A stretch of DNA of 64,000 nt from Myxococcales bacterium (GTDB lineage Bacteria; Myxococcota_A; UBA9042). Positions 6,777 to 64,000 of this stretch are shown here, one piece after another; the first letter of the stretch is position 1, and the number at the start of each line of letters is the position of its first letter. Made by a program: the position numbers and the translations under genes. The notes below the pieces were generated by a model. It saw only the letters and a program-made list of their open reading frames with translations, ran no database searches and was not told the DNA's origin. The DNA lies in assembly GCA_037441385.1 (NCBI GenBank), contig JBBISH010000022.1, positions 2-64,001 on the forward strand, in the 5' to 3' direction.

Positions 6777-6858
6777 GTTCCCCGTCCCGCGCACCCCATG
6801 AATCCCGGTGCCAGGGCGCATCATGCCGCGCCGTGACAGCGCCGTGAAGGGCCGCTGA

Positions 6859-6990
6859 TACGCACCCCACCTGATTCACGCCGATACGCTTCTTCTGACC
6901 CGTTATGCAACTGGCGAGAATCAGGCGGGGACCCCGGTTCGGGCCCTGAGAATTGCCCGAGTTTTCGATCTGATTCGGACGGAACTGGTA
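6859..6990 (-). mobile_element. 132-bp structured non-coding repeat (MITE/PATE-like), copy 1, inverted orientation
   Basis: Reverse complement of the copies at 28699, 57523 and 59693. It is exactly 132 bp, with TA at both ends, and is flanked by TGA at 6856-6858 and 6991-6993. It lies 73 nt upstream of the 7064 gene. Confidence 0.8.
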
Positions 6991-11202: not shown

Positions 11203-11482
11203 GGGGCCTCCAGGCGGCTGCGGTCCGCGGTGCGCGCAAGTTTGGCGTTTCCGCTGCCGCCGCGCAAGATTTGCCGGGTCCAGCCCTGCCTGGACACTGC
11301 AGTCTTTGGCGCCCGCCACGCTGCCCGCGGGCCTCGCGAAAAACGTGCGCGGGGCGATCCGCCTTGCTGCCGACCGCCCCGCTGCACAGTTCAGTAGCCC
11401 GCAAAATCCTCTGAATCGGCTCGACAATTCTGGCCATTCTTTGGGTGAGAGCCGGGGTTTGCAGGGTTGCCCACCGCTTCGG

Positions 11483-23411: not shown

Positions 23412-23600
23412 CTACGGCACAGAGACACCGCCAAGCTTGTTGGCGATGGCGGTAAACAAACCGCCGATCTTGGTGCCCAAGAGCGCCGCGGCGGTGATAA
23501 TCGCCACGCCAACCAGGGCCGCGAGCAGGCCGTACTCGATGGCAGTCACGCCGTCTTCGTCCCGAACAAAGCGCTTAGCGCTCAGAATCAAGGCCTTCAT
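23412..23600 (-). CDS. flp: Flp-family type IVb pilin
   Basis: 62 aa with the Flp motif DEDGVTAIEYGLLAALVGVAII. AGGAG ribosome-binding site. Confidence 0.9.
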   Translation of the reverse strand: MKALILSAKRFVRDEDGVTAIEYGLLAALVGVAIITAAALLGTKIGGLFTAIANKLGGVSVP

Positions 23601-23947: not shown

Positions 23948-24136
23948 CTACGAAGCGGAGGCGCCGCCAAGCTTGTTGGCGATGGCCGTGAACAAGTCGC
24001 TGATCTTGGTGCCCATCAGCGCGGCAGCCGTGATGATGGCGACGCCGACCAAGGCGGCCAGCAGGCCGTATTCGATCGCAGTCACGCCGTCTTCGTCGCG
24101 CGCGAAGCGGGCAATGGCGTTGGTAATCGTCTTCAT
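23948..24136 (-). CDS. flp: Flp-family type IVb pilin (second paralogue)
   Basis: 62 aa with DEDGVTAIEYGLLAALVGVAII. AGGAGG ribosome-binding site. The mature part differs from the other paralogue at only a few positions. Confidence 0.9.
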   Translation of the reverse strand: MKTITNAIARFARDEDGVTAIEYGLLAALVGVAIITAAALMGTKISDLFTAIANKLGGASAS

Positions 24137-28658: not shown

Positions 28659-28698
28659 TCTCTGTAGGGACTCCGTTTGAATCGGCTCGACGACCTCA

Positions 28699-28830
28699 TA
28701 CCCATTCCGTCCGAATCGGATCGAAAACTCGGGCAATTCTTCGGGCCCGAACCGGGGTCGCCGCCTGATTCTCGCCAGTTGCAGAACGGGTCAGAAAGGC
28801 TGTACAGGCGCGAATCAGGTGGGGTGCGTA
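28699..28830 (+). mobile_element. 132-bp structured repeat, copy 2
   Basis: Exactly 132 bp with TA...TA ends. It is flanked by TCA at 28696-28698 and 28831-28833. Confidence 0.8.
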
Positions 28831-28836
28831 TCAGCA

Positions 28837-28932
28837 GTTCCTCGGGCCCGAATCGGGGCCCCGCCTGGTCCTTGCCAGTTGCAGATCGGGTCAGCGAAGC
28901 CGTCCAGGCGTGAATCAGGTGGGGTTCGCACT
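28837..28932 (+). mobile_element. 5'-truncated, diverged copy of the 132-bp repeat
   Basis: Aligns to the right ~95 nt of the element (TTCNTCGGGCCCGAA...CCAGTTGCAGA.CGGGTCAG...GAATCAGGTGGGGT). It ends directly at the ATG of the next gene. Confidence 0.65.
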
Positions 28933-30673: not shown

Positions 30674-31753
30674 GTGGAGCCAACGACCAAAGACGCATCC
30701 CGCCGGCAAACGGTGCTACTGGTCGACGACGCACCAGAGAACCTTAGTATTCTAAGCGCTTTCCTCTCTGGGCAGTATCGCATCAAGGCTGCCAATTCCG
30801 GTGCGAACGCGCTGCGTATTTGTTCTTCCAACGAGCTGCCCGACCTGATCCTCCTGGACCTGATGATGCCCGAGCTCGACGGCTTCGAGGTCTGCAAACG
30901 GCTCAAGGACGACCCGCGCACCCGCGAAATTCCCGTCATCTTCGTCACGGCTGCCACCGACTCGGTCGACGAAGCCCACGGCTTGGCCGTGGGCGCGGTG
31001 GACTACATCACCAAACCGTTCAGTCCGGCAGTCGTGCTCGAACGAGTCCGCGTGCACCTGGAGCTCAAGCGCGTCCGCGATCGCCTCAACCGGCTTGGCC
31101 GGCACTTCTCGTCGTACCTGTCGTCCGAGGTGGCGAGCGGCATCCTGCGCGGCGCGATCACGCAAGGTGTGGTCAACCAACGCAAACCACTGACGATCTT
31201 CTTCTCCGACATCGTCGAGTTCACCAAGCAAACGGCGGCCCTGCCCCCCGAGCGCATGGCGCGGATGCTCAACGGCTACTTTGACGCGATGGCCGACATC
31301 GTCAGCCAGCACCATGGCACGCTGGACAAGTACATTGGCGACGCTTGCATGGTGTTCTTTGGCGATCCCACCTCGCGCGGCGCCGCCGAGGACGCCCGCT
31401 CGTGCGTGCGGATGGCGCTGGAAATGCAGTGTAAGATCGACGAGTTGCAAACATTTTGGAAAGGCCATGGCAGCGGCGCCCCGCTGTCGGTGCGCATGGG
31501 GATTGCCACGGGGCTGTGCGCCGTCGGCAACTTTGGCAGCACCCACCAGTTGGCCTACACCGTCATGGGGACGGCAGTGAACTTGGCAGCCCGGCTGCAG
31601 GCGCACGCCATGCCGGGGCGAGTGCTCATCTCGGAAGAAACCTATGCCCTTGTAGGTGCGGACTTTCCCTGCCGGGCCTTGCCCGAGATCCGGGTCAAGG
31701 GACTGGACGAGCCCGTCGTCGCCTACGAGGTTGAGGACGCTGGTCCGCGATGA
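30674..31753 (+). CDS. Response-regulator receiver fused to a class III adenylate/guanylate cyclase
   Basis: Receiver motifs VLLVDDAPENL...DLILLDLMMPELDG...PVIFVTA. Cyclase motifs LTIFFSDIVEFT...KYIGDACMVFFG...GNFGS...YTVMGTAVNLAARL. GTG start with GGAGAG upstream. Confidence 0.85.
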   Translation: MEPTTKDASRRQTVLLVDDAPENLSILSAFLSGQYRIKAANSGANALRICSSNELPDLILLDLMMPELDGFEVCKRLKDDPRTREIPVIFVTAATDSVDEAHGLAVGAVDYITKPFSPAVVLERVRVHLELKRVRDRLNRLGRHFSSYLSSEVASGILRGAITQGVVNQRKPLTIFFSDIVEFTKQTAALPPERMARMLNGYFDAMADIVSQHHGTLDKYIGDACMVFFGDPTSRGAAEDARSCVRMALEMQCKIDELQTFWKGHGSGAPLSVRMGIATGLCAVGNFGSTHQLAYTVMGTAVNLAARLQAHAMPGRVLISEETYALVGADFPCRALPEIRVKGLDEPVVAYEVEDAGPR

Positions 31754-33855
31754 CACTGCTCCTTTGGCTCTTGGCCGGATCGGCACTCACCGCGCTGATC
31801 GCGCTGGCCCTGTGGCGGCAGCGGTCCCAGGTCCTGCAGCGCGCCGCCGATCAGGTTCAACAGAGCCTCAGCCAGGCCCAGGCCGACAACGCCCAGCTCA
31901 AACAAGCCCTTGAAGCCGCCGTCCAAGAAGCTGCCGCAGCACGGACCAGCGAGGTCGCGCAACTGGAGCAGTGCCGCGACGACTTGGAAAAGAAAGTCGC
32001 CGAGCGCACTTCGGAACTAGCGGCGGCGCAACGGTTGGCCGAGGCCGCGAATCAGGCCAAGAGCGCGTTCTTGGCCAACATGAGCCACGAAATCCGCACG
32101 CCGCTCAACGCCATCATCGGTCAGGCGCACGTGCTCGGCACCCAGTCGATGCCGCCAAAGCAGGCCGAGCGGCTGCAAAAGATCGAGCGGTCGGCCCGCC
32201 ACCTGCTGTCGATCGTCAACGATGTGCTGGACCTGTCGAAGATCGAGGCGGGCAAGCTGCAGGTCACCCAGGCAGATTTCGACCTGCACGACTGCTTGGT
32301 AGCCGTGCGCGATCTGGTGGTGGGGCAAGCGGCCGACAAAGGTCTGCAAGTTCATATGGACGTCCAGGCGGGCGTGCCGCAGTTCGTCTCTGGCGATGGG
32401 TTGCGCATCAGCCAGGTCATGCTCAATTTCGCCAGCAATGCTGTGAAATTCACTCAGCACGGCAGCGTGACGCTCCGCGTGCGGCGCTTGGCCGTCGATG
32501 GGCCCAAGGTCTGGCTCCGTTTCGAGGTCCAAGACACGGGCATCGGCATCCCGCCCGCCGAAAAAGAGCGCTTGTTTCAGCCGTTTGAGCAGGCAGACCT
32601 TACCATTGCGCGCAAGTACGGCGGAACTGGCCTGGGTTTGGCCATCTCGCATCGCCTGGTCGACATGCTGGCCGGCAAGCTGGGTCTGGAAAGCCAAGAA
32701 AATGATGGCAGTACGTTTTGGTTCGAGGTTCCGTTGGGAGTCGCGTCGCCGCTCGCCGCCGCCGAGCTCCGCCGCCGCCAGTCCTACCCCCGACTTCCGC
32801 CGGTGCGCGCCGACATGGTGCGCATCCTCGTCGTCGAGGACGACCTGTTCAACCAAGAGGTGGCCGTCGATCTGCTGCAACCGCAGGGTTTTGTGGTCGA
32901 CGTGGCCGGCAATGGCGCGGTCGCCGTCGAGATGGCAACCAAGCAACAGTATGCCTTGATCCTGATGGACATTCAGATGCCGGTCATGGACGGCCTGGCG
33001 GCGACGCGGGCGCTCCGTGCGCTGGCCAACTATGCCCGAACCCCCATCGTCGCGATGACGGCCAACACCTTTGCCGACGACCAGGCGGCCTGTAGTGCCG
33101 CGGGAATGAATGACTTTGTGGCCAAGCCCATCGACCCGCGCGCCCTGCTCGAGACGGCGTGCCGCTGGACTGGCGTTGACCTGCCCGACAACTTGGAGAC
33201 GCGCACGCCCGCTGCGCAGCAAGGCACCCAAGAATTGCGCGCTCAGCTGGGCTCCATTGCCGGGCTGACGGCCGAGGCCGGGCTGGCGGTGCATCAGGGC
33301 GATTGGCGGCGCTATGCCAGGTTCCTCCAGCGGTTTTCGACCGAACGTGCCGACACCGTGGTCAAGCTGCGGGCCGAGATTGCTGGACAGCAATGGTTGG
33401 ATGCGCGCCGCACCGTCCACACCCTAAAGGGCCTGGCCGGGACGCTGGGGGCCCTGCGCCTGCAACACGCCGCGGCTACGGTCGAATCGGCCCTGCTGGA
33501 TCCGCACCAGCGCACCGACTTGACCGGACAGCTGGCCGACCTGGACGTCGAGCTGTCGGCTCTGATCCATGCGCTGCAAGTGCACCTGCCCGAACGCGAA
33601 GAGGAACTGCGGCCGGCCAGCGTTGACTGGGCCCAGGCGGCGCATGTGTGCGAAGAGCTTGCGAATCTGCTGGCACAAGACGACACGGGTGCGATCGACC
33701 TGTACAACGAGCACGCCGAACTGCTGCGCAACGCGCTGACCACCGCGGCCCCGCGCATCGAAGCGGCACTGCAAGGCTTTGACTTCGAGCGTGCGGCCGG
33801 GCTGCTCCGGGTAGCCCGCCTGTCGCAGTATCAGCTACAGAGCAAGACTTCGTGA
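31750..33855 (+). CDS. Hybrid sensor histidine kinase (TM, coiled coil, HisKA, HATPase, receiver, HPt)
   Basis: Motifs FLANMSHEIRTPLN, GGTGLGLAIS, ILVVEDDLFNQ...LILMDIQMPVMDG and HTLKGLAGTLG. ATGA start/stop overlap with the cyclase gene. Confidence 0.85.
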   Translation: MTLLLWLLAGSALTALIALALWRQRSQVLQRAADQVQQSLSQAQADNAQLKQALEAAVQEAAAARTSEVAQLEQCRDDLEKKVAERTSELAAAQRLAEAANQAKSAFLANMSHEIRTPLNAIIGQAHVLGTQSMPPKQAERLQKIERSARHLLSIVNDVLDLSKIEAGKLQVTQADFDLHDCLVAVRDLVVGQAADKGLQVHMDVQAGVPQFVSGDGLRISQVMLNFASNAVKFTQHGSVTLRVRRLAVDGPKVWLRFEVQDTGIGIPPAEKERLFQPFEQADLTIARKYGGTGLGLAISHRLVDMLAGKLGLESQENDGSTFWFEVPLGVASPLAAAELRRRQSYPRLPPVRADMVRILVVEDDLFNQEVAVDLLQPQGFVVDVAGNGAVAVEMATKQQYALILMDIQMPVMDGLAATRALRALANYARTPIVAMTANTFADDQAACSAAGMNDFVAKPIDPRALLETACRWTGVDLPDNLETRTPAAQQGTQELRAQLGSIAGLTAEAGLAVHQGDWRRYARFLQRFSTERADTVVKLRAEIAGQQWLDARRTVHTLKGLAGTLGALRLQHAAATVESALLDPHQRTDLTGQLADLDVELSALIHALQVHLPEREEELRPASVDWAQAAHVCEELANLLAQDDTGAIDLYNEHAELLRNALTTAAPRIEAALQGFDFERAAGLLRVARLSQYQLQSKTS

Positions 33856-33988
33856 CCGCAGTTCCGCTCGAATCGGCACGAAAAACTTGGGCAGGTCTTC
33901 GGGTCCAAACCGGGGTCCCCGCCAGATTTTCGCCAGTTGTAGACCAGGCCACAGCAACCGTACACGCGTGAACCAGGCGGGGTGCGCA
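33856..33988 (+). mobile_element. Degenerate copy of the 132-bp repeat
   Basis: Co-linear with the family (GTTCCG.TCGAATCGG.ACGAAAAACT.GGGCA...CGGGGTCCCCGCC.GATT.TCGCCAGTTG.AGA...CAGGCGGGGTGCG), but the ends and arms are eroded and there are no TCA flanks. Confidence 0.55.
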
Positions 33989-34182
33989 GCGGGCCGGTTC
34001 CGGCAGATTCCGCATGTCGCGTGCAGTGTGCCCGCGGCTCAGCAGCAGGATGCCCAACCGGCCGCGGCGGCTTGCAGGCCAAAACTGCGACCTTTTTGAC
34101 GAAAGGCCACCGACACCGTAGCTTTGCACGAGCGTTGCCGTGCGCGCCCACTGCTTTTGGGTGTGGCCGGGCAGCGCAGGGG

Positions 34183-52076: not shown

Positions 52077-52117
52077 CGCCGTAAATGTGTTGGAAATCTG
52101 TGCGATCCTTGGTACTT

Positions 52118-52246
52118 GGCCCTCACCCCGCCGCCTGCGGCGGCAGCCCCTCTCCCAACGCTTTGGGCGAGGGGCAATGCAATTTCCCTTTACCCCTCGC
52201 CAACTTCAGTGGGAGAGGGGTCGGCCGCAGGCCGGGGGTGAGGGCC
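52118..52246. repeat. Compound palindrome (REP-like), with outer ~40-nt arms enclosing an inner hairpin
   Basis: GGCCCTCACCCC..CCTGCGGC..GCCCCTCTCCCA pairs with TGGGAGAGGGG..GCCGCAGG..GGGGTGAGGGCC. The inner hairpin is GGGCGAGGGG-loop-CCCCTCGCC (52165-52201). It lies downstream of the hemerythrin gene. Confidence 0.7.
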
Positions 52247-52295
52247 ATTCGACGCTGCGGCAGAGTAAGCAACCGGTAAGGCAGGCAGTTGGTCT

Positions 52296-53131: not shown

Positions 53132-53158
53132 TGTCAAGTGTCAATACCTGACACCCTC
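53132..53158. repeat. Right copy of the inverted repeat, overlapping the last codons of the RND gene
   Basis: TGTCAAGTGTCAATACCTGACACCCTC. It is internally palindromic (GGTGTCA...TGACACC) and has a TGTCAA direct repeat. Confidence 0.6.
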
Positions 53159-56100
53159 CTCGTCCTCGTAACCACCCGGTCGGCCACCACGTAGAAGCAC
53201 GGGACCACCAGTAGGCTCAGCGCCGTGGACACCACCAGACCGCCAATGATCGCCAGCGCCATCGGCCCGCGCACCTCGGCACCGGGACCCAGGGCCAGCG
53301 CCGACGGCATCGCCGCCATCAAGGTCGCCAAGGAAGTCATGAGGATCGGCCGCAGCCGCACCGGCCCCGCCGCCAGCATCGCGTCCTTGGCCGTGGCGCC
53401 GCGCTCGCGCACCTGGTTGGCGTAGTCCACCAGCAGGATCGAGTTCTTCTTGACGATGCCCATCAGCAGCAGTAGGCCAATCATCGAGAAAATGTTCAAG
53501 GTTTTGCCCGACCACCACAGCGCCAGTGCCGCCCCCGCCACCGACAGCGGCAGAATGGTCAGCACCGTGACCGGGTGCAGCAGCGAGTTGAACTGCGCCG
53601 CCAGGATCATGTACGCCACCGCAATCCCCAGGATCAGCGCAAAGATCAGGCTCTGCATCGACTCACGAAACGCGATCGACGCGCCCGACATCACCACCCG
53701 CGTCCCCTGCGGCAGCTCGCCGCCCAGCTTCTCGACCAGGCGCAGCGCCTCGTCCTGGGCGTGCCCAGGCGCGATGTTGCCGGTAATGGTGATGGCGCGC
53801 TCGCGGTCTTTGCGGGTGATGGCCTGCAGTGCCGGCTTCTCGGACATCGTCACCAGCGACGAGATCGGGATGAGCTGCCCGGCCTTGTTGCGCACCCGCA
53901 GCGTATTGAGCGCCTCGGGGCGGCTGCGCTGGGCCTGCAGCAGGCGCACGCGCGTGTCCACCCGCCGGCCCGACTGGGTAAATTTCCCCACCTTGACGCC
54001 GCCGACCAGGGCGTTCAGCGTCGTGGCCACGTCCTCGATCGACACGCCCACGTCGCTGCAGCGGGCGCGGTCCGGCTCGATCTGCAGCTCGGGCTGGCCC
54101 AGTTGGTAGTCGCTGTCCACGTCGACCACCACGCCACCCTCGCGCAACTTGCGCAGCATCTCTTGGCTCGCGCCCACGAGTTGGTTCCAATCGGCGCCGC
54201 GCACGCTGAATTCGACCGGGTAGCCGCGGCTGGCGGCAAAGCCGGTCTGCGACACGTCCAGCGGCATGGCACGCAACCCAGGGATCGCGTTCAGCTCTTT
54301 GCGCAGCCAGCCGATGATGTCGTTTTGCGTGGCGCTCCGCTCCTTGGGGTCGGTCAGGGTCACGAAAAGCATCGCGCCGTTGACCGCGGTGGTGCCAAAC
54401 CCGCCGATGACGCCAAAGTAGCGCTCTACCTCGGGCCGGCCCGAGATCTTCTGCTCGGCCTTGCGCACGATGGTTTCGGTGGTCGGCAGATCCATCCCGA
54501 CGGCGGTCTGCATCCGCACCATGATCCGCGACTGGTCCTGGCTGGGCACCATCTCGGCCGGCAGTTGGCTCAACAGCTGCACGGCAAAGTACGTCACCGT
54601 CGCCGCCACCAGCACCACCACCAGCGGAATCTTCAGCACCGACCGCAGTTGCCACGCGTACACGCGCTGCAGCAGCTCGAAGCCGCGGTCCACCTGCCGA
54701 CCCAGCCAGGTGCGGTCGTGCTTGCCCACCTTGAGCAGCTGCGCACAGCGCGCCGGCGCCAGGGTGATCGCCTCCAGGTACGACAGCAGCACCGCGATCG
54801 ACAGCGCCACGCCAAACTGCAGGAAAAACTTGCCAATGATGCCCTGCATGAAGGCCACCGGCAGGAAGATCGCCACTACCGCCAGGGTCGCAGCCAGCGC
54901 CGCAAACGTGATCTCGCGGGTGCCCTCGCGCGAGGCTGTGACGTTGTCCGAGCCTTCCTCGGCGTGGCGGAAGATGTTCTCCAGCACCATGATGGCGTCG
55001 TCGACCACGATGCCCACCGCCAGCGACATTGCCAACAGCGTAAAAGTATTGAGGGTCCACCCCAAGAAATACATCACCGCCACGGTGCCCAGCAGCGACA
55101 TCGGGATCGCCAGCACCACGTTGACGGTCGACGTCAGCGACCCCAAGAACATCCAGCACACCAGCGCCGTCAGCGCGATGGCCAGGGCCAGCTCGAATTC
55201 GATCTCGTGCACCGAGTCTTCAACGAACACCGAAGTGTCAAAATTCACGCCCAGTTGCATCCCCGCCGGCAGCGTCTTCTTGATCTCCTCGATCATCGCT
55301 TTGACTTCGCGCGCCACCGCGACGGTGTTGGCGCCGCGCTGCTTTTTGATACCCATGCCCTGCGACGGCTCGCCGTTCACGCGACCGATGCGGCGCACGT
55401 CCTCGAAGCCGTCTTCGACCAGCGCCACATCGCGCAGCCGCACGGGGGTATTGCCTTGGGTCTTGATGGTAAGTCCGCGCAGCGTCTCTAGGTTTAGGGC
55501 TTCGCCCATCACCCGCACCGTCACTTCGCGCCCACCAGTTGACAGATAACCAGCCGGCAGCTCCACGTGCTCGCGCTTGAGCGCCGTCATCACCTCGGCC
55601 ACCGTCACGCCGCGCTCGTCCAGCTTCTCGGCGTCGATCCACACCCGCACCGAGCGGTCCAGGTAGCCGCCCAGCATCACCTCGCCCACGCCGGGCACCG
55701 TCTGCAGTTTCTCTTTGACGCGGTAGCGCGCGTAGTCCGACAGCGTCGCCCGCGGCAAGGGGCCAGACAGGCCCAACCACAGGATCGGATTGTCTTCTGG
55801 GTTGCTCTTGCTGATGACGGGCGGGTCCAAGTCACGCGGCAACCGTTGCTGCGCTTGGCTCACCTTGCTTTGCACCTCTTGCATCGCCACGTCGACGTTG
55901 CGCGAGATGTCGAGTTCCAGCGTGACGGTGGCTTGGCCCTGGCGCGAGACGGACGTGATGCTGCGCACGCCCTCGACCTGCATCAGATTTTCTTCTACGA
56001 TTTCAGAAACATCGTTCTCCATCACCTCCGGCGCGGCGCCCTCGCGGGTCAGCGAGACGGTGATGGTGGGGTAGTCCACATCGGGGAACTGGCTGACGCC

Positions 56101-56196
56101 GATGCGCTGCCCGGCCACCAGGCCAAACAGGATCAGCGCCGCCATGATCATCCAGGCGAGCACCGGGTTCTTGATGCAGATTTCCGTGATGTTCAC
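53134..56196 (-). CDS. RND multidrug-type efflux transporter (AcrB/HAE1-like)
   Basis: 1020 aa. The N-terminus is MNITEICIKNPVLAWMIMAALILFG...FPDVDYPTITV, with the 12-TM RND layout. GTG start in a GTGA overlap with the adaptor gene. Confidence 0.9.
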   Translation of the reverse strand: MNITEICIKNPVLAWMIMAALILFGLVAGQRIGVSQFPDVDYPTITVSLTREGAAPEVMENDVSEIVEENLMQVEGVRSITSVSRQGQATVTLELDISRNVDVAMQEVQSKVSQAQQRLPRDLDPPVISKSNPEDNPILWLGLSGPLPRATLSDYARYRVKEKLQTVPGVGEVMLGGYLDRSVRVWIDAEKLDERGVTVAEVMTALKREHVELPAGYLSTGGREVTVRVMGEALNLETLRGLTIKTQGNTPVRLRDVALVEDGFEDVRRIGRVNGEPSQGMGIKKQRGANTVAVAREVKAMIEEIKKTLPAGMQLGVNFDTSVFVEDSVHEIEFELALAIALTALVCWMFLGSLTSTVNVVLAIPMSLLGTVAVMYFLGWTLNTFTLLAMSLAVGIVVDDAIMVLENIFRHAEEGSDNVTASREGTREITFAALAATLAVVAIFLPVAFMQGIIGKFFLQFGVALSIAVLLSYLEAITLAPARCAQLLKVGKHDRTWLGRQVDRGFELLQRVYAWQLRSVLKIPLVVVLVAATVTYFAVQLLSQLPAEMVPSQDQSRIMVRMQTAVGMDLPTTETIVRKAEQKISGRPEVERYFGVIGGFGTTAVNGAMLFVTLTDPKERSATQNDIIGWLRKELNAIPGLRAMPLDVSQTGFAASRGYPVEFSVRGADWNQLVGASQEMLRKLREGGVVVDVDSDYQLGQPELQIEPDRARCSDVGVSIEDVATTLNALVGGVKVGKFTQSGRRVDTRVRLLQAQRSRPEALNTLRVRNKAGQLIPISSLVTMSEKPALQAITRKDRERAITITGNIAPGHAQDEALRLVEKLGGELPQGTRVVMSGASIAFRESMQSLIFALILGIAVAYMILAAQFNSLLHPVTVLTILPLSVAGAALALWWSGKTLNIFSMIGLLLLMGIVKKNSILLVDYANQVRERGATAKDAMLAAGPVRLRPILMTSLATLMAAMPSALALGPGAEVRGPMALAIIGGLVVSTALSLLVVPCFYVVADRVVTRTRRVSGIDT

Positions 56197-57386
56197 GGTC
56201 GCCCCGTTGGCGTGACCGCGCCGGGGCCGCCGACTTCGCCGCTGGCCGGCCGATCGCGCGCCGTACCGGGCACTGCCGCAGGTACCACCTTGACTTGAGC
56301 GCCCTCGCGCAGGGCTTCGCCGCCGATCGTCACCAGCTGCTCACCGCCGTTGAGGCCCGCCACGACTTCGACCAAGTTGTCGCCCGTGCGCATGCCCAAC
56401 TGCAGGATCCGCTCTTTCGCCTTGCCGCCTTCGACCGTGAAAGCCAGGAAGCCCTTTTCGCTAGGACGAATCGCCGTTTCGGGCACCACCGGCGCGGGCC
56501 GCTTGCCGCCCACCGGGACCACCACTTCGGCAAATGCGCCGGGACGCAGGTCGTCGCTGGCGCCCTCGATGACCGCCAGCACCTCGACCAGGCGCGAGGT
56601 CTCGTCGGCCCGGCCGCCAATGTGGCGAATCACAGCGGTATGCGTGCCCTCTACGCCGCGCACTCGGAAGCGGACGGTCATCTCGCGCTGCAGCCGCTGG
56701 GCGTCGGTCTCGCTCACCGCAAACCGCACCCGCAGCGGGTCCAAGCGGAGCAGGGTGGCGACGATCGCGCCCGGCTGCACATAACTGCCCGTCTGCACAC
56801 GCCTTGCCTCGATGCGACCCGCCGCGGGCGCTCGCACGCGCGCGTCGTGCAGGTTCAACTGCGCCAAATCCAGCGCGGCCTTGGCTTGGGCCAGCTCGGC
56901 TTCGCTGATCCGGTACTTGGCTTCGGCCGACTCGATCTCCTCGCCCGCCGCTACCTCGGGCCCCAAGGCTTTGCGCCGTTGCAGGATTTTCTTGGCGTCG
57001 GCCAGGTTGGCCTCTGCGCGCCGCAAAGTGGCGGTCGCCTGCTCCACGGCGATGCGATAGCGCTTCGGTTCGATCTCGGCCAAGACGTCGTCGGCCTGGA
57101 CGCGATCGCCCTCGACGAAGCTGACCTTTTCGACCGTACCGGCGACGCGGGCGGTGACTTGGGCCTCTTCAAAGGCGATGACTGTGCCCACGGCCGCCAG
57201 CGAATATTCCAGCTCGCGCACGGCCACGGTCTGAGTTTCGACCGGGAAGGCGCTGGGCGGCTTCTTGGCGCCGCCGCTGCCCGGCCCGCTGGCGGCTTTG
57301 TCAGCGCCGCCCTTGCAGGTCGTCAGGGCCGCCAGGCAAGTCGCAAGCGCAAGGAATTTGCTCAGCATGCTTGCCTGAATCGGCAT
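56193..57386 (-). CDS. RND efflux periplasmic adaptor lipoprotein
   Basis: Lipobox LTTC. It has a membrane-fusion hairpin and barrel. An alternative ATG lies at 57368. Confidence 0.85.
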   Translation of the reverse strand: MPIQASMLSKFLALATCLAALTTCKGGADKAASGPGSGGAKKPPSAFPVETQTVAVRELEYSLAAVGTVIAFEEAQVTARVAGTVEKVSFVEGDRVQADDVLAEIEPKRYRIAVEQATATLRRAEANLADAKKILQRRKALGPEVAAGEEIESAEAKYRISEAELAQAKAALDLAQLNLHDARVRAPAAGRIEARRVQTGSYVQPGAIVATLLRLDPLRVRFAVSETDAQRLQREMTVRFRVRGVEGTHTAVIRHIGGRADETSRLVEVLAVIEGASDDLRPGAFAEVVVPVGGKRPAPVVPETAIRPSEKGFLAFTVEGGKAKERILQLGMRTGDNLVEVVAGLNGGEQLVTIGGEALREGAQVKVVPAAVPGTARDRPASGEVGGPGAVTPTGRP

Positions 57387-57522: not shown

Positions 57523-57654
57523 TACCGGTTCCGTCCGAATCGGATCGAAAACTCGGGCAATCCTTCGGGCCCGAACCGGGGCCCCCGCTTGATTCTCGCC
57601 AGTTGCAGGAGGGGTCACTAAAACCGTACAGGCGTGAATCAAGTGGGGTGGGTA
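57523..57654 (+). mobile_element. 132-bp structured repeat, copy 4
   Basis: Exactly 132 bp with TA...TA ends. It is flanked by TCA at 57520-57522 and 57655-57657. Confidence 0.8.
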
Positions 57655-57708
57655 TCAGAACCATTGGCCGGCCTGCGCGCTTCTGGCAGACTGATCGCGG
57701 AGGGGTCC

Positions 57709-59514
57709 TTGCCGCGCTTCTGCTTCCCATTCCACGTCCGCCGCCACACCGCGGCCCTGTTGCTGGCGCTGGCGGCGTGGCAATGCAGCGATCCGGGCCG
57801 CGCCGATTCGGCCGACACGCTGGCCAACGGTGTAGCCGATGTGGCCGTATTCTTCGACGTGGCCGCGGCAAGCGACGCCAAGGGCCCCGGCGCGGCCGAC
57901 ACCCAAGTCGCCCCAGACGGAGCGCTTGGCGACGCCCACCTGGGCGATACCGCCGCGGGCGACGCAGGCCACGACGCCGACGCGGCGGCGGATGTCTCGT
58001 GCATCCCCAAGCCAGAGGCCTGCAACGGGCTCGACGACGACTGCGACGGCAAGACCGACAACAGCGCCTGCGACGACGCCAACAGCTGCACGATCGACAC
58101 GTGCAAGGGGGCGAGCGGCACCTGCGCCCACGCCGCCAAGGTGGGCGCCTGCGACGATGGCAACCCGTGCAGCCAAGACGATCAGTGCCAGTCCAGCCAA
58201 TGCGTCGCGGGCGTGCCCGCCACCTGCGACGACGAGAACCCTTGCACGGCCGACAGTTGTGACCCCGCCAGCGGCTGCAAATCGCTGCCGGTCGCCGCGA
58301 CGGCCTGCAGCGACGACGGCGACACCTGCACCGCCGACGTGTGCGACGCTGGCCTATGCACGCACCCCGTCATCGCCGGCCACTGCAAGATAGGCGGGGT
58401 CTGCGTGGCGGCCGGCACGCCAAGCGACAAGAATCCTTGCATGTTCTGCGATCCGGCCGTCACGCCGCTGCAGTACGCGCCCAAGGACGGCGCCGCGTGC
58501 GAAGACGGCAACCCATGCACCATGGGCGAGACCTGCCTGGGCGACCAATGCAAAGGCTCGCAAAAAGACTGCTCGTCGCTCGACGCAGCCTGCGTGGTCG
58601 GCGCCTGCAGCCCCGCCAGCGGCACCTGCGCCCCCTCGCCCAAGGCCAGCGGCACCGCTTGCGACGACGGCAACCCGTGCACCAGCCAAGACACATGCGA
58701 CGGCAACGGTCTCTGTGCCGCCCAACCGCTCAGCTGCGCCACGTTGGACGACGCCTGCCATACCGGTGTGTGCAATGGCGGCCAATGCTTGCAGCAAAAC
58801 AAGTCGAACGGTGTCGACTGCTCCGACGGCGACGCATGCACCGTGAGCGACAGCTGCAAGGCGGGCGCATGTACAGGGGTTCCCATGGATTGCAGCAGCC
58901 AAGCGGACCCATGCCACACCGGCGCCTGCGCGGCCGGCAAGTGCGGCCCGCTCGCCAAGCCCAACGGCACCAGCTGCGACGACGCAAGCCCGTGCACATC
59001 CAACGATATCTGCACCGGCGGCGTCTGCTCTGGCACGCTCGCCCAAGACAGCTACGAACCCAACAACAGCTCCAGCAGCTCGGCCACGCTGGCTGCCAAG
59101 AGCGACTGCGATCCCGAGTCGAGCCTGTCGGCCCTGGTCAGCCCGGCCGGCGACACCGACTGGTACACCTACGAAGTCAGCGACGACACGTTCTGCACCA
59201 TCAAGCCCAGCGTCACGCTCGACAACCTGGGCGGCGACTACGATGTGTGCATCTACTTTGTCTGCAAGGGCAAATCGGCGGCCTCTGACCAGGTTAGCTG
59301 CACCGCGGGGAGCAAGACGGCGGGGAACGGCCCTGGCGGCGCCTTCGGCTGCTGCTCGAGCAACCCAGGCACCGACCTGGAGTTCGCCAAAATCGACCCC
59401 TTGTGCTCGTTCTTGGCCACCGGCAGCGAGTCCGGGACGGTGTGGGTGCAGGTGACCAGCAAGTCGGGCGCCACCTGCGGTAGCTACAAAATGAACTGGA
59501 GCGCGCAGGATTAG
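57709..59514 (+). CDS. Secreted Cys-rich repeat protein with a C-terminal PPC-like (pre-peptidase C-terminal) domain
   Basis: Repeated C-x-D-G-N-P-C-T-x-D-x-C units. The C-terminus reads YEPNNS...SPAGDTDWYTYEV...GDYDVCIY. The ORF-track start at 57634 lies inside the repeat element. The TTG at 57709 has GGAGGGG upstream, but the start remains uncertain. Confidence 0.7.
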   Translation: MPRFCFPFHVRRHTAALLLALAAWQCSDPGRADSADTLANGVADVAVFFDVAAASDAKGPGAADTQVAPDGALGDAHLGDTAAGDAGHDADAAADVSCIPKPEACNGLDDDCDGKTDNSACDDANSCTIDTCKGASGTCAHAAKVGACDDGNPCSQDDQCQSSQCVAGVPATCDDENPCTADSCDPASGCKSLPVAATACSDDGDTCTADVCDAGLCTHPVIAGHCKIGGVCVAAGTPSDKNPCMFCDPAVTPLQYAPKDGAACEDGNPCTMGETCLGDQCKGSQKDCSSLDAACVVGACSPASGTCAPSPKASGTACDDGNPCTSQDTCDGNGLCAAQPLSCATLDDACHTGVCNGGQCLQQNKSNGVDCSDGDACTVSDSCKAGACTGVPMDCSSQADPCHTGACAAGKCGPLAKPNGTSCDDASPCTSNDICTGGVCSGTLAQDSYEPNNSSSSSATLAAKSDCDPESSLSALVSPAGDTDWYTYEVSDDTFCTIKPSVTLDNLGGDYDVCIYFVCKGKSAASDQVSCTAGSKTAGNGPGGAFGCCSSNPGTDLEFAKIDPLCSFLATGSESGTVWVQVTSKSGATCGSYKMNWSAQD

Positions 59515-59571
59515 AGACGCGGCCAATTACTGCTCATTCGTTCAGTAATTGCCGCTTCGGGCCGCGTCTCT
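59515..59571. repeat. Uninterrupted hairpin unit (the empty site) after the 57709 gene
   Basis: AGAGACGCGGCCAATTACTG-ctcattcgtt-CAGTAATTGCCGCTTCGGGCCGCGTCTCT. The same arms recur at 59669-59689 and 59834-59862, with the 132-bp element in the loop. Confidence 0.75.
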
Positions 59572-59692
59572 AGTCCCAAGTGGGGCGCAAGCGAGCGCCT
59601 GCGGCGACTCGCCGCGCCGAGTTCGAAGGTTCGGATGTGCGGAGAATGTCTGGCTTGAGCCGCGTTCTAGAGACGCGGCCAATTACTGCTCA

Positions 59693-59824
59693 TAGCCGTT
59701 CCGTCCGAATCGGATCGAAAACACGGGCAATTTTTCGGGCCCGAACCGGGGTCCCCACCTGATTCTCGCCAGTTGCAGAACGGGTCAGAAAAGCCGTACA
59801 GGCGCGAATCAGGTGGGGTGCGTA
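59693..59824 (+). mobile_element. 132-bp structured repeat, copy 5, inserted in a hairpin loop
   Basis: Exactly 132 bp with TA...TA ends. It is flanked by TCA at 59690-59692 and 59825-59827. The paralogous empty site has a single TCA at 59534-59536. Confidence 0.85.
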
Positions 59825-59966
59825 TCATTCGTTCAGTAATTACCGCTTCGGGCCGCGTCTCTAGCCCCAAGTGGGGCGCAAGCGAGCGCCTGCGGCGACT
59901 CGCCGCGCCGAGTTCCAAGGCCCGGACGCACAGAGAAGTTCGAAATTGATCGGGGATCTGCCCGGC

Positions 59967-62900
59967 CTACTTGATCCGCAGCAGTAGTCCGGTCTGGCCG
60001 GCGCTGGTCTGGCCCGATGGCACCATCGTTGCGCCTGTCGCCGCCGTTGCGGCCGAGCCCGCAAGGTAGATCGAGCCGTCGGTCGGGTTGGCCCAGGCCC
60101 GGCTCAGGGTCAGGCGGCCTGCGTTGTTGCTGTCGCAGGTGTACAGGGTCGCGGCCGTCACTTTCAGGTGGTCCCAGGCCCAGCCGCTGCTGGTGCGCGT
60201 GCCGTGCAACACGAACAAGTAGCGGCAGCCATTCAGTGTCGTATGGCCGCCGACAAACGCTTCCTTGTCCAGCACCGCTACCGCTTGCGGCACGTAGTTG
60301 TTGCTCGACCAGCTGCTGTTCACGCCGGATGCCTTCAGGCTGGGGGATTCAGCGCTCCAGCTGGTGCCGTTGAAACTCCAGATGACGGGGCTGCCCGACG
60401 CTGCCGGCGTGCCCACGGCTAGGATGTTGCTGGCCGACGAACCGTCGACCGCGGCCACGTAGGCGTTGCTGTTCGTTAGCAATTTGGTGTTGTTGGACGA
60501 CAGGTCCACGGTGCCGCCGGGCGCGACGCCGCTGCATAGGCCATTCAACGAATTCGAAGCGTTCCAATAGGCGACGTAGCCGGTGGTGTTCTGTGGCCGG
60601 TACACGACCATGAACGCTTCGCTGAGCGAGGGCCGGTAGATGCCCAAGACGTGGGCGTTGATCATGGCCGCACCACATCCAATCGCGAAGGTAGGCGGCG
60701 ACGCCACCACGCCCATCTCGCCCAGCTTGGCCGAGCTTGCGTCCCAAGTGTTGCTGGTTGGCGAATACTTGTATCGATACAAGGTACTCGCGGGCGTCAT
60801 GGTCGCGCCGTCGCCTGCACCGCCGCTCATGTAGTCTTCGCTCGACGACTGGGCGTCCAGCACCATCGCCGTGGTCCGCAACACCCGCGCAAGGTTGCTC
60901 AGCAGGGGACCGCCCGCGGTGTAGGGCGGATTGCCCGAATAGACCGCCGTGTACCCCGCAGAATCGGACGCGCTGCTGCCGATGGTGGCATGGCCGCCCG
61001 TGAGCAAGCGACTGCGGATGCTCCACAACTCTTCCGTCGCGCTCCAAGCCGTAGAGAGCGTGATCGGGGTAGCGCCCGTGTTGACGGTGAACGCGCCGCC
61101 GATCGGCGAACCGCCCGTGCTTGCGCTGACCGCTTGGCCGACCGCGGTGATTCCGCCGGCCTTGTCGGGGTTGATGTCCAACAGGCGCGTCAGGGTGCCG
61201 CCGCTGGCGGCGATGGTGGCCTGCTCGATGCCCGTGCACACCGCATTGCGGCACATGCCGTAGGCGGTGCCTGCGGGCGCGCTGCAGGCCGTGTCGGAAC
61301 CAAGTGCGGAATAGGCGCACAGGAAGCTGCCGTCGGGCTGCGCCGAGCAGCTGTCGGCCGTGCACGGGTTTTTGTCGTCGCAGGCGTTGCTGCCCGTGGG
61401 CACCTGGCATTCGCCGTACATGCAGCTTTCGCCCACCGTGCAGGGGTTGCCGTCGCTACACGCCGCGACGTTGAAGGCAAAGTTGCAGGTTCCGCCCGTC
61501 ATCGCGTCGCATGTGTCGTCGGTGCAGACGTTGCCGTCGTTGCAGTTCAGGGTTTGACCCGAGCAAGCGCCCGTGCCGCTGCAAGTTTCGCCCGAAGTGC
61601 ACAGCAACCCATCGGTGCACGACGATCCGGCCGCGCGGGCCGTAAAGCTGCTGCCGCCCTGGCAGCTCTTGCAGGGCTCGTTTGCGGCGATCATGCCGTA
61701 CGTGTAGCACACGCCGCCAACGGTGCACGGGTTGCCCGTGTCGCGGATGCGGCGAATCAGGTGGTTGTACGAGTCCGCTACATACAGGTAGCCCGACAGG
61801 TCCGAGGTGATGCCCCCCGGCATGTTGAACGACGCTTGCAGCGCGGGTCCAGGCGAGACGCTGCTGCCGCCGCCCGCAAAAGTGCCCACGCCGTTGGCAC
61901 CGCCGCGCCGCACCCTAGCGTTGTTGGTGTCGGCAATGAACACAGGGCCCCAGCTTGGCATCGTGATGCCGCTGGGGTAGTTGAACTCGACCGCCGCGAG
62001 GTTGGTCGAGTCGACGAGGCCGGCCTTGCCATCGCCCGCCACGGTGGTAACGACGCCGGCCGCGGTCACTTTACGCAGCTTGTGGTTGTTGGTGTCCACC
62101 ACATACAGCACGCCGTTGCCATCAAAGGCCAGGGCGGTCGGCTTGTTGAACGTGGCCTTGCCGCCGGTTCCCGTGCCGGTGTCGCCCGAGCCCGCCACGC
62201 CCGTGCCGGCCAGCGTGGTGACCAGGTTCGTGTTGGGATTGTAAAGGCGGATCGCGTGGTTGCCACTGTCGGCGATCGCGACCAAGCCGGACGAGCTGAC
62301 GGCGACGCCCATCGGCTTGCTGAATTGCGCCTCTTTGACTGCGCTGCCGTCGGTAAAGCCCTCGGTCCCGCCCGCCAGAGTGCTCACTGCGCCGCTGGTC
62401 ACGTCGACCAAGCGCAACGCGTGGTTGTTCGTGTCCACCACGTACAGATTGCCCTTGACGGCCGCGGCCACGCCCATGGGCAGGTTGAACATCGCCCCGG
62501 CGCCGGTGCCGTCCGAGAATCCGGCCGCAGTCCCGCCCGCCACCGTCGCCACCTTGCCGTCCAGCGTCACTGCGCGGATGGCGTGATTGTATGCGTCTGC
62601 CACGTAGATTTTCTGGTCGTAGGCCATAAAGGCCAAGCCGGCAGGGGTGTTGAACTTGGCTGCCGCGCCCGTGCCATCGGCCAGCGCACCGCCGCCCGAG
62701 CCGCTGTTGGGGTTGGGGATCTGGCCGGCCAACACATCGACCCACACTTGATTGCCGGGCTTGCACACACCGCTTTGGCAATTGTCGCCCACGGTGCACG
62801 CGTTGCCATCGCTGCAGGCCGTGCCCGCGGCGGCGTTGGTGTAGACGCAGCCGCTCGCCTTGCTGCAGGTGTCGACCGTGCAATCGTTCTTGTCGTCGCA

Positions 62901-64000
62901 GACGATGGCCGTGCCCGCGCAGACGCCGCCGGCGCACACGTCGCCGCTCGTGCACGCGTCGTTGTCGCTGCAGGTTTGCGTGGTGTTCGTGTGGAGACAG
63001 CCCTGAGTTTTGTCGCAGCTGTCCGCGGTGCAAACGTTGTTGTCTTCGCAGTTTGCGGGCGTTGGGCCGGTGCACTTGCCGCCGCTGCAGACGTCGCCGG
63101 TGGTGCAGGCGTCGTTGTCGTTGCACGGCACGCTGTTGTTCACGTGCTGGCAGCCGTTGGATTTGTCGCAGCTGTCGTTGGTGCACAAGTTGCCATCCAC
63201 GCAGTCCAGGATGCCGGGGCCCGCACACTTTCCGCCGCTGCACACGTCGCCGGTGGTGCAGGCGTCGCTGTCGTTGCACGGGCTGGTGTTGTTGGTGAAC
63301 GCGCACTTGCCGTTGGTGCACGCGTCGCTGGTGCAGGCGTTGCTGTCGTTGCAGTCTGCGGTGCTGGCACAGTTGCCGCCGCAGCCGATGATGGGTGTGT
63401 GGGTGCAATTGCCGCTGGCCGGGTCGCACGAGTCGTTGGTGCAGTTGTCGGTATCGCTGCAGTTCTTGGCCAATCCGGGCTTGCACACGCCGGCCGCGCA
63501 CGCATCGCTCAGCGTGCAGGTGTTGCCGTCCTCGCATGGCGCGGTATTTGCGGTGTACTTGCAGCCGCTGGCCGGGTCGCAACTGTCGGTGGTGCAAACG
63601 TTGTTGTCGTTGCAGACCAGCGCCGGCCCTGGGGCGCACGCGCCGCCCGCGCACGTGTCGTTGTTGGTGCAGGCGCTGCCGTCGCTGCAACTCGCGCTGT
63701 TGTTGACGTTCTTGCAGCCCGTGGCCGGGTCGCAACTGTCGGTGGTGCACAGGTTGCCGTCGTCGCAGTTGGGGGCCGCGCCGCCCTTGCAACTGCCTCC
63801 GCTGCAGACGTCTTGGGTCGTGCAGGCGTTGTTGTCGGTGCAGGCCGCGGTGTTGTTGGCATAGGTGCAGGTACCGGTGGCCGGGTTGCAGGTGTCGTTG
63901 GTGCAAGGGTTGCTGTCGTTGCACACGACGGGTTGGCTGGCGATGCACTTGCCGCCGCTGCACGTATCCACCTTGGTGCAGGCATCGTTGTCGGTGCATG
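59967..64000 (-). CDS. Giant secreted protein (5' end outside the window) with Cys-rich repeats, six NHL repeats, more Cys-rich repeats and a ~500-aa Cys-poor C-terminal domain
   Basis: The frame is open to the window edge. The NHL motifs are YVADAYNHAIRAV, YVVDTNNHALRLV, IADSGNHAIRLY, YVVDTNNHKLRKV, FIADTNNARVRR and YVADSYNHLIRRI. The stop is at 59967. Confidence 0.8.
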   Translation of the reverse strand, partial: CTDNDACTKVDTCSGGKCIASQPVVCNDSNPCTNDTCNPATGTCTYANNTAACTDNNACTTQDVCSGGSCKGGAAPNCDDGNLCTTDSCDPATGCKNVNNSASCSDGSACTNNDTCAGGACAPGPALVCNDNNVCTTDSCDPASGCKYTANTAPCEDGNTCTLSDACAAGVCKPGLAKNCSDTDNCTNDSCDPASGNCTHTPIIGCGGNCASTADCNDSNACTSDACTNGKCAFTNNTSPCNDSDACTTGDVCSGGKCAGPGILDCVDGNLCTNDSCDKSNGCQHVNNSVPCNDNDACTTGDVCSGGKCTGPTPANCEDNNVCTADSCDKTQGCLHTNTTQTCSDNDACTSGDVCAGGVCAGTAIVCDDKNDCTVDTCSKASGCVYTNAAAGTACSDGNACTVGDNCQSGVCKPGNQVWVDVLAGQIPNPNSGSGGGALADGTGAAAKFNTPAGLAFMAYDQKIYVADAYNHAIRAVTLDGKVATVAGGTAAGFSDGTGAGAMFNLPMGVAAAVKGNLYVVDTNNHALRLVDVTSGAVSTLAGGTEGFTDGSAVKEAQFSKPMGVAVSSSGLVAIADSGNHAIRLYNPNTNLVTTLAGTGVAGSGDTGTGTGGKATFNKPTALAFDGNGVLYVVDTNNHKLRKVTAAGVVTTVAGDGKAGLVDSTNLAAVEFNYPSGITMPSWGPVFIADTNNARVRRGGANGVGTFAGGGSSVSPGPALQASFNMPGGITSDLSGYLYVADSYNHLIRRIRDTGNPCTVGGVCYTYGMIAANEPCKSCQGGSSFTARAAGSSCTDGLLCTSGETCSGTGACSGQTLNCNDGNVCTDDTCDAMTGGTCNFAFNVAACSDGNPCTVGESCMYGECQVPTGSNACDDKNPCTADSCSAQPDGSFLCAYSALGSDTACSAPAGTAYGMCRNAVCTGIEQATIAASGGTLTRLLDINPDKAGGITAVGQAVSASTGGSPIGGAFTVNTGATPITLSTAWSATEELWSIRSRLLTGGHATIGSSASDSAGYTAVYSGNPPYTAGGPLLSNLARVLRTTAMVLDAQSSSEDYMSGGAGDGATMTPASTLYRYKYSPTSNTWDASSAKLGEMGVVASPPTFAIGCGAAMINAHVLGIYRPSLSEAFMVVYRPQNTTGYVAYWNASNSLNGLCSGVAPGGTVDLSSNNTKLLTNSNAYVAAVDGSSASNILAVGTPAASGSPVIWSFNGTSWSAESPSLKASGVNSSWSSNNYVPQAVAVLDKEAFVGGHTTLNGCRYLFVLHGTRTSSGWAWDHLKVTAATLYTCDSNNAGRLTLSRAWANPTDGSIYLAGSAATAATGATMVPSGQTSAGQTGLLLRIK

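Follow-up and report, generated by a model that had tools for sequence, protein, structure and literature searches.

The DNA analysed here, hereafter the window, is a stretch of 64,000 nucleotides (64 kb) of an uncultured Myxococcales bacterium (GenBank assembly GCA_037441385.1, contig JBBISH010000022.1). Towards its end, two convergent genes for cysteine-rich (Cys-rich) proteins enclose a spacer, bounded by the stop codons at 59512-59514 and 59967-59969, that is made up of two copies of one unit. Each copy is built around a long hairpin, and the second, unit B, carries in the loop of that hairpin a 135-bp block that is missing from the first, unit A. Two near-identical hairpins are therefore found next to each other, one occupied and one vacant. 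In our best reading the block belongs to a new, lineage-restricted family of non-coding, non-autonomous mobile elements of uncultured Myxococcota that is moved in trans. The coordinates of the locus and of the family members are compiled in Table 1.

A repeat search located two direct repeats in the spacer, one of 26 nt that is 100% identical (59512-59537 and 59668-59693, spacing 156 nt) and one of 135 nt that is 86% identical (59534-59668 and 59825-59959, spacing 291 nt); the two spacings differ by 135. According to a single-gap scan, unit B (292 nt) equals unit A (157 nt) plus one 135-bp block, and with the block removed the two units are colinear and identical at 138 of 157 positions. Identity is unevenly distributed along the units: 111 of the first 113 nt match, a part that comprises the long hairpin and a GC-rich hairpin, as against 27 of 44 in the tail, so that an identity of 98% is followed by one of 61%. 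Because TCAT stands at both junctions, the position of the gap is ambiguous by up to 4 nt, and five registers, from 59690-59824 up to 59694-59828, are equivalent; the empty site reads GCTCATTCG, with a single TCAT. We adopted the register 59693-59827, in which the TCA of the left flank occupies 59690-59692 and the last three bases of the element are again TCA (59825-59827). Judging from these alignments, a mobility event of some kind separates the filled from the empty state. An initial annotation of the locus had treated the units as homologous apart from the element, with the hairpin arms and the downstream hairpin in common, and both points are borne out by the figures above. It had drawn the units too short, as they extend to 59668 and 59959, and its insert of 132 bp followed by TCA is a valid register of what in full counts 135 bp.

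Table 1. Positions of the spacer units, their hairpins, the flanking genes and the members of the element family in the window.
Feature	Positions	Strand	Remarks
Upstream Cys-rich secreted-type protein gene	57709-59514	+	601 aa as called in the database; longest open reading frame starts at 57634
Convergent Cys-rich/NHL-repeat protein gene	59967-63971	-	
Unit A, empty state	59512-59668	+	Long hairpin, GC-rich REP-like hairpin, diverged tail
Unit B, filled state	59668-59959	+	Unit A with a 135-bp insert in the hairpin loop
Host hairpin A	59508-59576	+	Arms 59508-59532 and 59543-59576; loop 59533-59542; vacant TCA 59534-59536
GC-rich REP-like hairpin, unit A	59580-59619	+	Identical copy in unit B
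GC-rich REP-like hairpin, unit B	59871-59910	+	Identical to the unit A copy
Element copy, loop of host hairpin B	59693-59827	+	Covariance score 163.5 bits; ends in TATCA (59823-59827)
Large subterminal hairpin of this copy	59753-59818	+	21-nt arms, 24-nt spacer; foot 9 nt from the 3' end
Family copy	57523-57657	+	Flanked by divergent genes; ends 52 nt before the Cys-rich gene start
Family copy	28699-28833	+	94% identical to the 59693 copy
Internal-deletion variant, 95 nt	28834-28928	+	Head-to-tail, directly after the terminal TCA of the 28699 copy
Family copy	6856-6990	-	Between divergent genes; sole minus-strand copy
Diverged copy, 78% identical	33856-33986	+	Adjoins the stop codon of a hybrid histidine kinase gene
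Degenerate relic, left half of a family member	11399-11476	+	Covariance model E = 0.002

Searches of the window by BLAST and with a covariance model built from the family (R1), run without filters, yielded six copies and one relic, or about one copy per 10 kb. The four intact copies (59693, 28699, 57523 and 6856) agree with one another at 117-127 of 135 positions (BLAST E values of 1e-47 to 1e-58); they are thus 87-94% identical while lying beside unrelated genes, and no pair in the window exceeds 94%. All copies are intergenic, two of them between divergent genes, one between convergent genes and one abutting a stop codon, and the tandem pair at 28699 and 28834 ends about 15 nt before a start codon. 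That the insert is a full member of a family with copies at 28699, 57523 and 6856-6990, as had been proposed, was confirmed by BLAST; the list has to be lengthened by the copies at 33856-33986 and 28834-28928 and by the relic at 11399-11476. The proposed recency of the mobility is to be taken in a relative sense only: the units differ at just 2 of 113 positions in their conserved part, yet identity between elements stays at or below 94%. A fragment like the left end of the element is also present in the left flank of the 28699 copy (28672-28695). This fragment and the relic at 11399-11476 share a variant of their own, TGAATCGGCTCGAC, which suggests an older sister subfamily and new copies that may land beside relics.

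The ends of the element are asymmetric. Each well-preserved copy lies directly 3' of a TCA, which is part of CTCA in three cases, of GTCA in one and of ATCA at the short variant; the last bases of the four intact copies are GTATCA. The motif in the left flank can accordingly be written as [C/G/A]TCA, or as TCAT with the register shifted by one base, and TCA(T) is all that the flanking contexts share (GCTCA/TTCG, CCTCA/..., GGTCA/GCGG and CCTCA/GAAC, the slash marking the point of insertion). The element begins with TAGCCG and ends with GCGTATCA. Terminal inverted repeats are absent: the comparison of one end with the reverse complement of the other scores 4, where shuffled sequences average 5.7, and the repeat search lists none. 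On the plus strand the element is predicted to form three stems, a small one at the 5' side, one in the middle and a large one towards the 3' end, and its left and right parts have the motif CGAATC(G/A)G in common. Folded as single-stranded DNA it reaches -33.9 kcal/mol (z = -4.6, with none of 200 shuffles as good), and as RNA its two strands also fold better than shuffles (z = -2.8 and -3.3). The plus-strand consensus fold has 27 G.T pairs as against 3 A.C pairs, a count that is biased by the prediction of the fold on that same strand and that offers a weak hint of strand-specific structure.

Mobility is independently supported by related genomes. Syntenic loci from related Myxococcota metagenome-assembled genomes (MAGs), L091 to L098, amounting to about 130 kb in total, were compared with the window and contain no member of the family. 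In the closest relative, L091 (GCA_016218865.1; 71% protein identity at the convergent-gene locus), the site orthologous to the 57523 copy is vacant and has one TCA, reading ...TGGCGCCACTGTCA/CAATCG... where the window has ...CTGGCGCCACCTCA-element-GAACCATTGG... or, in a shorter form, ...GCCACTGTCA/CAA... where the window has ...GCCACCTCA-element-GAA.... Similarly, the spacer between the histidine kinase gene and the VTC-domain gene measures 131 and 125 nt in L097 and L098 (77% and 67% identity) and lacks the 33856 copy, compared with about 330 nt in the window. The vacant site and the copy-free spacers thus give separate backing to the mobility that the initial annotation had read from the two units. 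At the convergent-gene locus itself, the L091 genes are only 5 bp apart; because the entire 452-bp spacer is missing there, the closest relative cannot polarise the change between the filled and the empty state.

Wider searches returned no relatives. No match was obtained in JGI metagenome contigs (two scans, using patterns with 29 and 26 specified bases), in viral contigs (two scans, one with the element and one with an arm of the host hairpin) or in a plasmid collection (blastn with the whole spacer). Rfam 15, including its IS605-associated, omega-RNA and HEARO families, gave no match at the gathering threshold over the whole window, and relaxed Rfam searches produced only chance matches to miRNA-like hairpins, far below threshold. 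The two open reading frames (ORFs) of the element, submitted as a 4-row alignment in a search aimed at spurious ORFs over further copies, found no match among 5.8 billion proteins. The 17-mer GATTYTCGCCAGTTGYA, run against a 596-Gb genome collection, hit 90 loci, all of them chance matches to a pattern that is too short. Within the limits of such exact-pattern scans, the family appears to be restricted to the source lineage.

Unit A, folded as single-stranded DNA, forms a hairpin of about 25 bp with the 10-nt loop CTCATTCGTT (-46.3 kcal/mol, z = -4.8), and the TCA of the insertion site lies in this loop. The 40-nt GC-rich hairpin further downstream (GTGGGGCGCAAGCGAGCGCCTGCGGCGACTCGCCGCGCCG) also occurs in L091 at 894-933 on the minus strand, with 97.5% identity, in another, non-orthologous spacer and on the opposite strand, even though proteins of the L091 MAG are merely 71-77% identical to those of the window. 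By sequence this hairpin looks like a dispersed repeat of the repetitive extragenic palindromic (REP) type common to both lineages, and part of what we call the unit would then be such a repeat. For this reason, and because the divergence between the units is uneven, a simple one-step tandem duplication is an uncertain account of their origin; gene conversion is an alternative, and so is a composite host element that inserted more than once. A derivation of the unit tail from the 3' end of the upstream gene was rejected, the alignment scoring below the shuffle mean. A scan of the spacer for promoter and terminator consensus sequences found none. Unit A opens with TAG, which serves as the stop codon for the upstream Cys-rich gene; this gene ends two codons before its L091 orthologue (...AQDPP-stop; window 59509-59514 versus L091 2895-2916). 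Since unit A supplies this stop codon and the orthologue runs two codons longer, gain of the spacer has reshaped the 3' end of the gene.

Any interpretation of these data starts from a family with defined boundaries, an empty and a filled paralogue, an empty orthologous site, the lack of inverted ends and an exclusively intergenic spread. The assignment that we prefer, a tentative one that may well prove right, is to the palindrome-associated transposable elements (PATEs), gene-less derivatives of the IS200/IS605 family with a single-strand mechanism. It is based on the asymmetric ends, the invariant motif on the left with a related motif on the right, the exact empty site and the hairpin 9 nt from the 3' end. 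Members of IS200/IS605 have a transposon-adjacent motif of 4-5 nt on the left and a related, transposon-encoded motif on the right, for example TTCAT and TTCAC; they insert without target duplication and excise scarlessly, and PATEs, which lack genes, are mobilised in trans (PMC10055086). The right cleavage site of IS608 lies 10 nt 3' of a subterminal hairpin (PMC3201880). On this model, the top strand would be peeled out as a single-stranded circle by a Y1 (HUH) transposase whose gene lies in another part of the genome, and the circle would be pasted 3' of TCA(T) in single-stranded DNA without duplicating the target, and the loop of the long host hairpin would have offered an exposed TCA. The same enzyme would excise the element without a scar, and unit A could be either a never-occupied paralogue or the product of such an excision. 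The type of transposase, the single-strand chemistry and the absence of a true target duplication are the parts of this model that we infer.

Several observations weigh against this assignment. A Pfam scan of about 40 ORFs in the 64-kb window detected no transposase, RAYT or TnpB; as none of these ORFs matches a transposase family, the element is non-autonomous at least locally, and no full-length version of it came to light either. The left and right hairpins of the element are dissimilar, and TTCC and GGGT, the tetranucleotides 5' of the two feet, differ although the cleavage motifs resemble one another, so that the guide rule of IS608 is not evident. Covariation among the six sequences is not significant, with one compensatory pair and 184-218 of 500 shuffles reaching the observed value. 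Five of the six copies and the relic lie on the plus strand, a bias of 6 in 7 that is not significant, and the GC skew of the window is weak and changes sign. The TCA on both sides of the intact copies fits a 3-bp target duplication as well. The tandem arrangement of the units comes from a metagenome assembly and is read from its letters alone. Finally, when the empty sites at the other four loci were rebuilt and folded as DNA, they did no better than shuffles (z from -1.6 to +0.9, compared with -5.7 for the empty site of the 59693 copy). Loop targeting as a rule of the family is rejected on these grounds, TCA(T) being the sole target feature that the sites share. The insertion into a loop is thus a property of this one event and not of the family; a preference for exposed single-stranded sites would accord with it but is not proved by it.

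A separate matter from the class of the element is the history of the locus. The order of events first proposed, insertion after the unit had duplicated, is plausible, and its reversal fits the sequences equally: the filled unit would be ancestral and duplicated, and unit A would then have lost its element precisely, by scarless excision or by slippage between the TCAT repeats. We regard this reversed order as quite possible. Scarless excision, or slippage between the 4-nt repeats, would leave behind precisely the empty site that is seen, the strong hairpins of the element would favour slippage, and in the IS200/IS605 family excision is orders of magnitude commoner than integration (PMC10055086). 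At other loci of this lineage the comparison with related genomes shows gains, so that insertions do occur; no sequence feature polarises the event at the spacer, and either history needs two steps. Because the sequence cannot tell the two apart and scarless excision is frequent under the PATE-like mechanism that we favour, insertion into unit B and precise loss from unit A are rated as roughly equal in probability. Either direction implies activity after the two hairpins had arisen.

The TCA that stands to the left and the right of each of the four intact copies, and that the empty site has only once, would also be expected of a MITE (miniature inverted-repeat transposable element) that is cut and pasted by a DDE transposase with duplication of a 3-bp TCA, like the IS5/IS1031 or Harbinger types with their TNA duplications, and the register of 132 bp plus TCA suits this explanation. 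Classical MITEs of this kind combine inverted ends with a variable duplication. Here the ends are strongly asymmetric, terminal inverted repeats are wholly absent and the TCA is invariant, which would demand an unusually strict 3-bp target, and we therefore consider a DDE mechanism unlikely.

We give the same low probability to a solo module moved by a recombinase that shares a short core between its sites, whether a DEDD enzyme of the IS110/IS1111 type with a bridge RNA or an IS607-type serine recombinase, with TCA as the crossover core. Insertions of the IS110 family have at least 10 conserved nucleotides around their core, and the cores of serine recombinases are 2 nt long. The flanks of the present element share TCA(T) only, not the same target of at least 10 nt around a 2-nt core that a bridge-RNA module calls for, which counts against that candidate. 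Moreover, four of the five sites lie outside hairpins or REPs, and neither a DEDD nor a serine recombinase is encoded among the window ORFs scanned. What speaks for such a module is the lack of inverted ends together with a short identical core at both junctions, the structured character and length of about 135 nt, the CGAATC(G/A)G motif common to the left and right parts, and the precedent of ISPpu9, by which solo small-RNA modules are carried into REP hairpins at an AG core that is visible at either end (PMC12288879).

A further reading, which we rate as rather improbable, is that the element, instead of being an IS200/IS605 relic, is an end-asymmetric module of an undescribed kind: either a self-propagating guide gene resembling an omega or bridge RNA, which might read its own 3' flank as the guide, or a module on which a new single-strand DNA transposase acts, an enzyme that might need only TCA and one large 3' hairpin. 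It is kept because the element has no twin hairpins at its ends, no database relative and a 135-nt fold of several stems.

As the contig is metagenome-assembled from an uncultured lineage, and the first 113 nt of the units are 98% identical, the assembler could have laid out the filled and empty alleles of a single unit in tandem. We think this quite improbable: the tails are only 61% identical and the tail of unit A joins the start of unit B, unlike two collapsed alleles, and even an artefact would still reveal an empty and a filled allele. Highly improbable, lastly, is a non-mobile family of structured regulatory or small-RNA genes kept alike by selection or gene conversion, for despite the strong multi-hairpin fold and three copies that lie 10-52 nt upstream of co-oriented start codons, copies 87-94% identical stand next to unrelated genes, orthologous spacers of relatives lack the family, nested and tandem arrangements, deletion variants and relics occur, Rfam gives no match and covariation is not significant.

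Returning to the surroundings of the element, every best homologue of the neighbouring proteins belongs to a MAG of Myxococcota or 'Deltaproteobacteria'. The Pfam scan assigned window ORFs, among others, to a Tad pilus cluster, to resistance-nodulation-division (RND) and heavy-metal efflux, to two-component signalling and to Cys-rich repeat proteins; ARAGORN returned neither a tRNA nor a tmRNA for the window, and a look-up of the neighbouring RND adaptor protein returned no exact record. The Tad pilus cluster includes two tandem genes for 62-aa Flp-type pilins (23412-23600 and 23948-24136, both on the minus strand) whose DNA is 83.5% identical over 152 nt. Between a gene for a hemerythrin-domain protein and the next gene lies a near-perfect palindrome of 131 nt (52117-52247), present once in the window, which folds as DNA at -53.7 kcal/mol (z = -6.9) and may be another hairpin-type repeat, similar to a MITE or to a REPIN (a hairpin formed by two REPs). 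In the more distant L092 and L094 the Cys-rich gene follows the hemerythrin gene, whereas in the window (53134-57386) and in L091 RND efflux genes stand between the two or directly upstream of the Cys-rich gene. Gene order thus points to a local rearrangement beside the element-rich spacers.

Around the 33856 copy, a conserved motif, TTTTTGACGAA...CGTAGCTT, is found upstream of the VTC-domain gene in the window (34090-34125), in L097 (4368-4400) and in L098 (10962-10995), and may be the promoter of that gene. In the window alone, the element copy and about 100 additional nucleotides part this motif from the stop codon of the kinase gene. The hybrid histidine kinase encoded there (31750-33855) has 701 aa, compared with 803 and 794 aa in its two closest orthologues. 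The closest orthologues have N-terminal PAS domains, and Pfam reported none for the window kinase, which suggests an internal deletion or divergence in its sensor part.

The locus offers self-contained evidence of past mobility of a small non-coding repeat in an uncultured Myxococcota lineage, and it defines both the exact boundaries of the element and its minimal target, TCA(T). Located immediately in front of start codons and immediately behind stop codons, the family probably shapes untranslated regions and spacer lengths in the source genome. Should the partner of the element be a Y1 transposase, the insertion into a hairpin loop would illustrate in nature how a target is captured as a single strand; should the element carry a guide RNA, every copy would amount to a programmable RNA ready for use.

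Among known systems, insertion into the loop of an extragenic palindromic hairpin is shared with IS1397 and ISKpn1, two members of the IS3 family that enter the hairpin loops of REPs and of the bacterial interspersed mosaic elements (BIMEs). These are full-length DDE elements with inverted ends and duplications of 3-4 bp, and they are strictly palindrome-specific; the present family has no inverted ends and is not strictly palindrome-specific. The REPs and REPINs associated with the RAYT enzymes (TnpA-REP) likewise form a dense intergenic repeat with a long hairpin of two inverted arms at its core, and their movement is ascribed to a Y1 HUH enzyme that works on single-stranded DNA. They differ in that the arms of the present element are not palindromic REPs and bear no GTAG or CGTC tag, in that no RAYT or Y1 gene lies in the window, and in the asymmetric, conserved 5' part of 60 nt that the element has outside its hairpin.

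Another parallel is the solo ssr9 module of ISPpu9, an IS110-family element of Pseudomonas putida: it too is a small, structured, non-coding module without inverted ends that is moved in trans, it resides within hairpin-forming extragenic repeats, and it has a short core at both junctions, one of them derived from the target (PMC12288879). ISPpu9 differs in requiring a long, conserved REP target, whereas the sites of the present family share TCA(T) only and for the most part form no hairpin.

The PATEs derived from IS608, ISDra2 and ISGst differ from the element in some respects. The subterminal palindromes of IS608 are near-identical and those of the element are unlike each other; the right hairpin of the element is much longer, with its 21-nt arms; guide tetranucleotides are not evident; and neither a tnpA or tnpB gene with the element's ends in the window nor similarity to the IS605-associated and omega-RNA families of Rfam was found. 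Like PATEs, the element is short and non-coding and has no terminal inverted repeats. It combines a conserved motif of 3-5 nt at the 5' side with a related one at the 3' side ([C/G]TCA(T) and ATCA, corresponding to TTCAT and TTCAC in ISGst), and its subterminal hairpins lie on one strand, the right one 9 nt from the end compared with 10 nt in IS608. Exact restoration of the empty site is a further parallel, and the copies are intergenic, multiple and in part arranged in tandem. Set beside these systems, the element adds modestly to the catalogue of bacterial non-autonomous elements, as a fairly ordinary small transposon relic.

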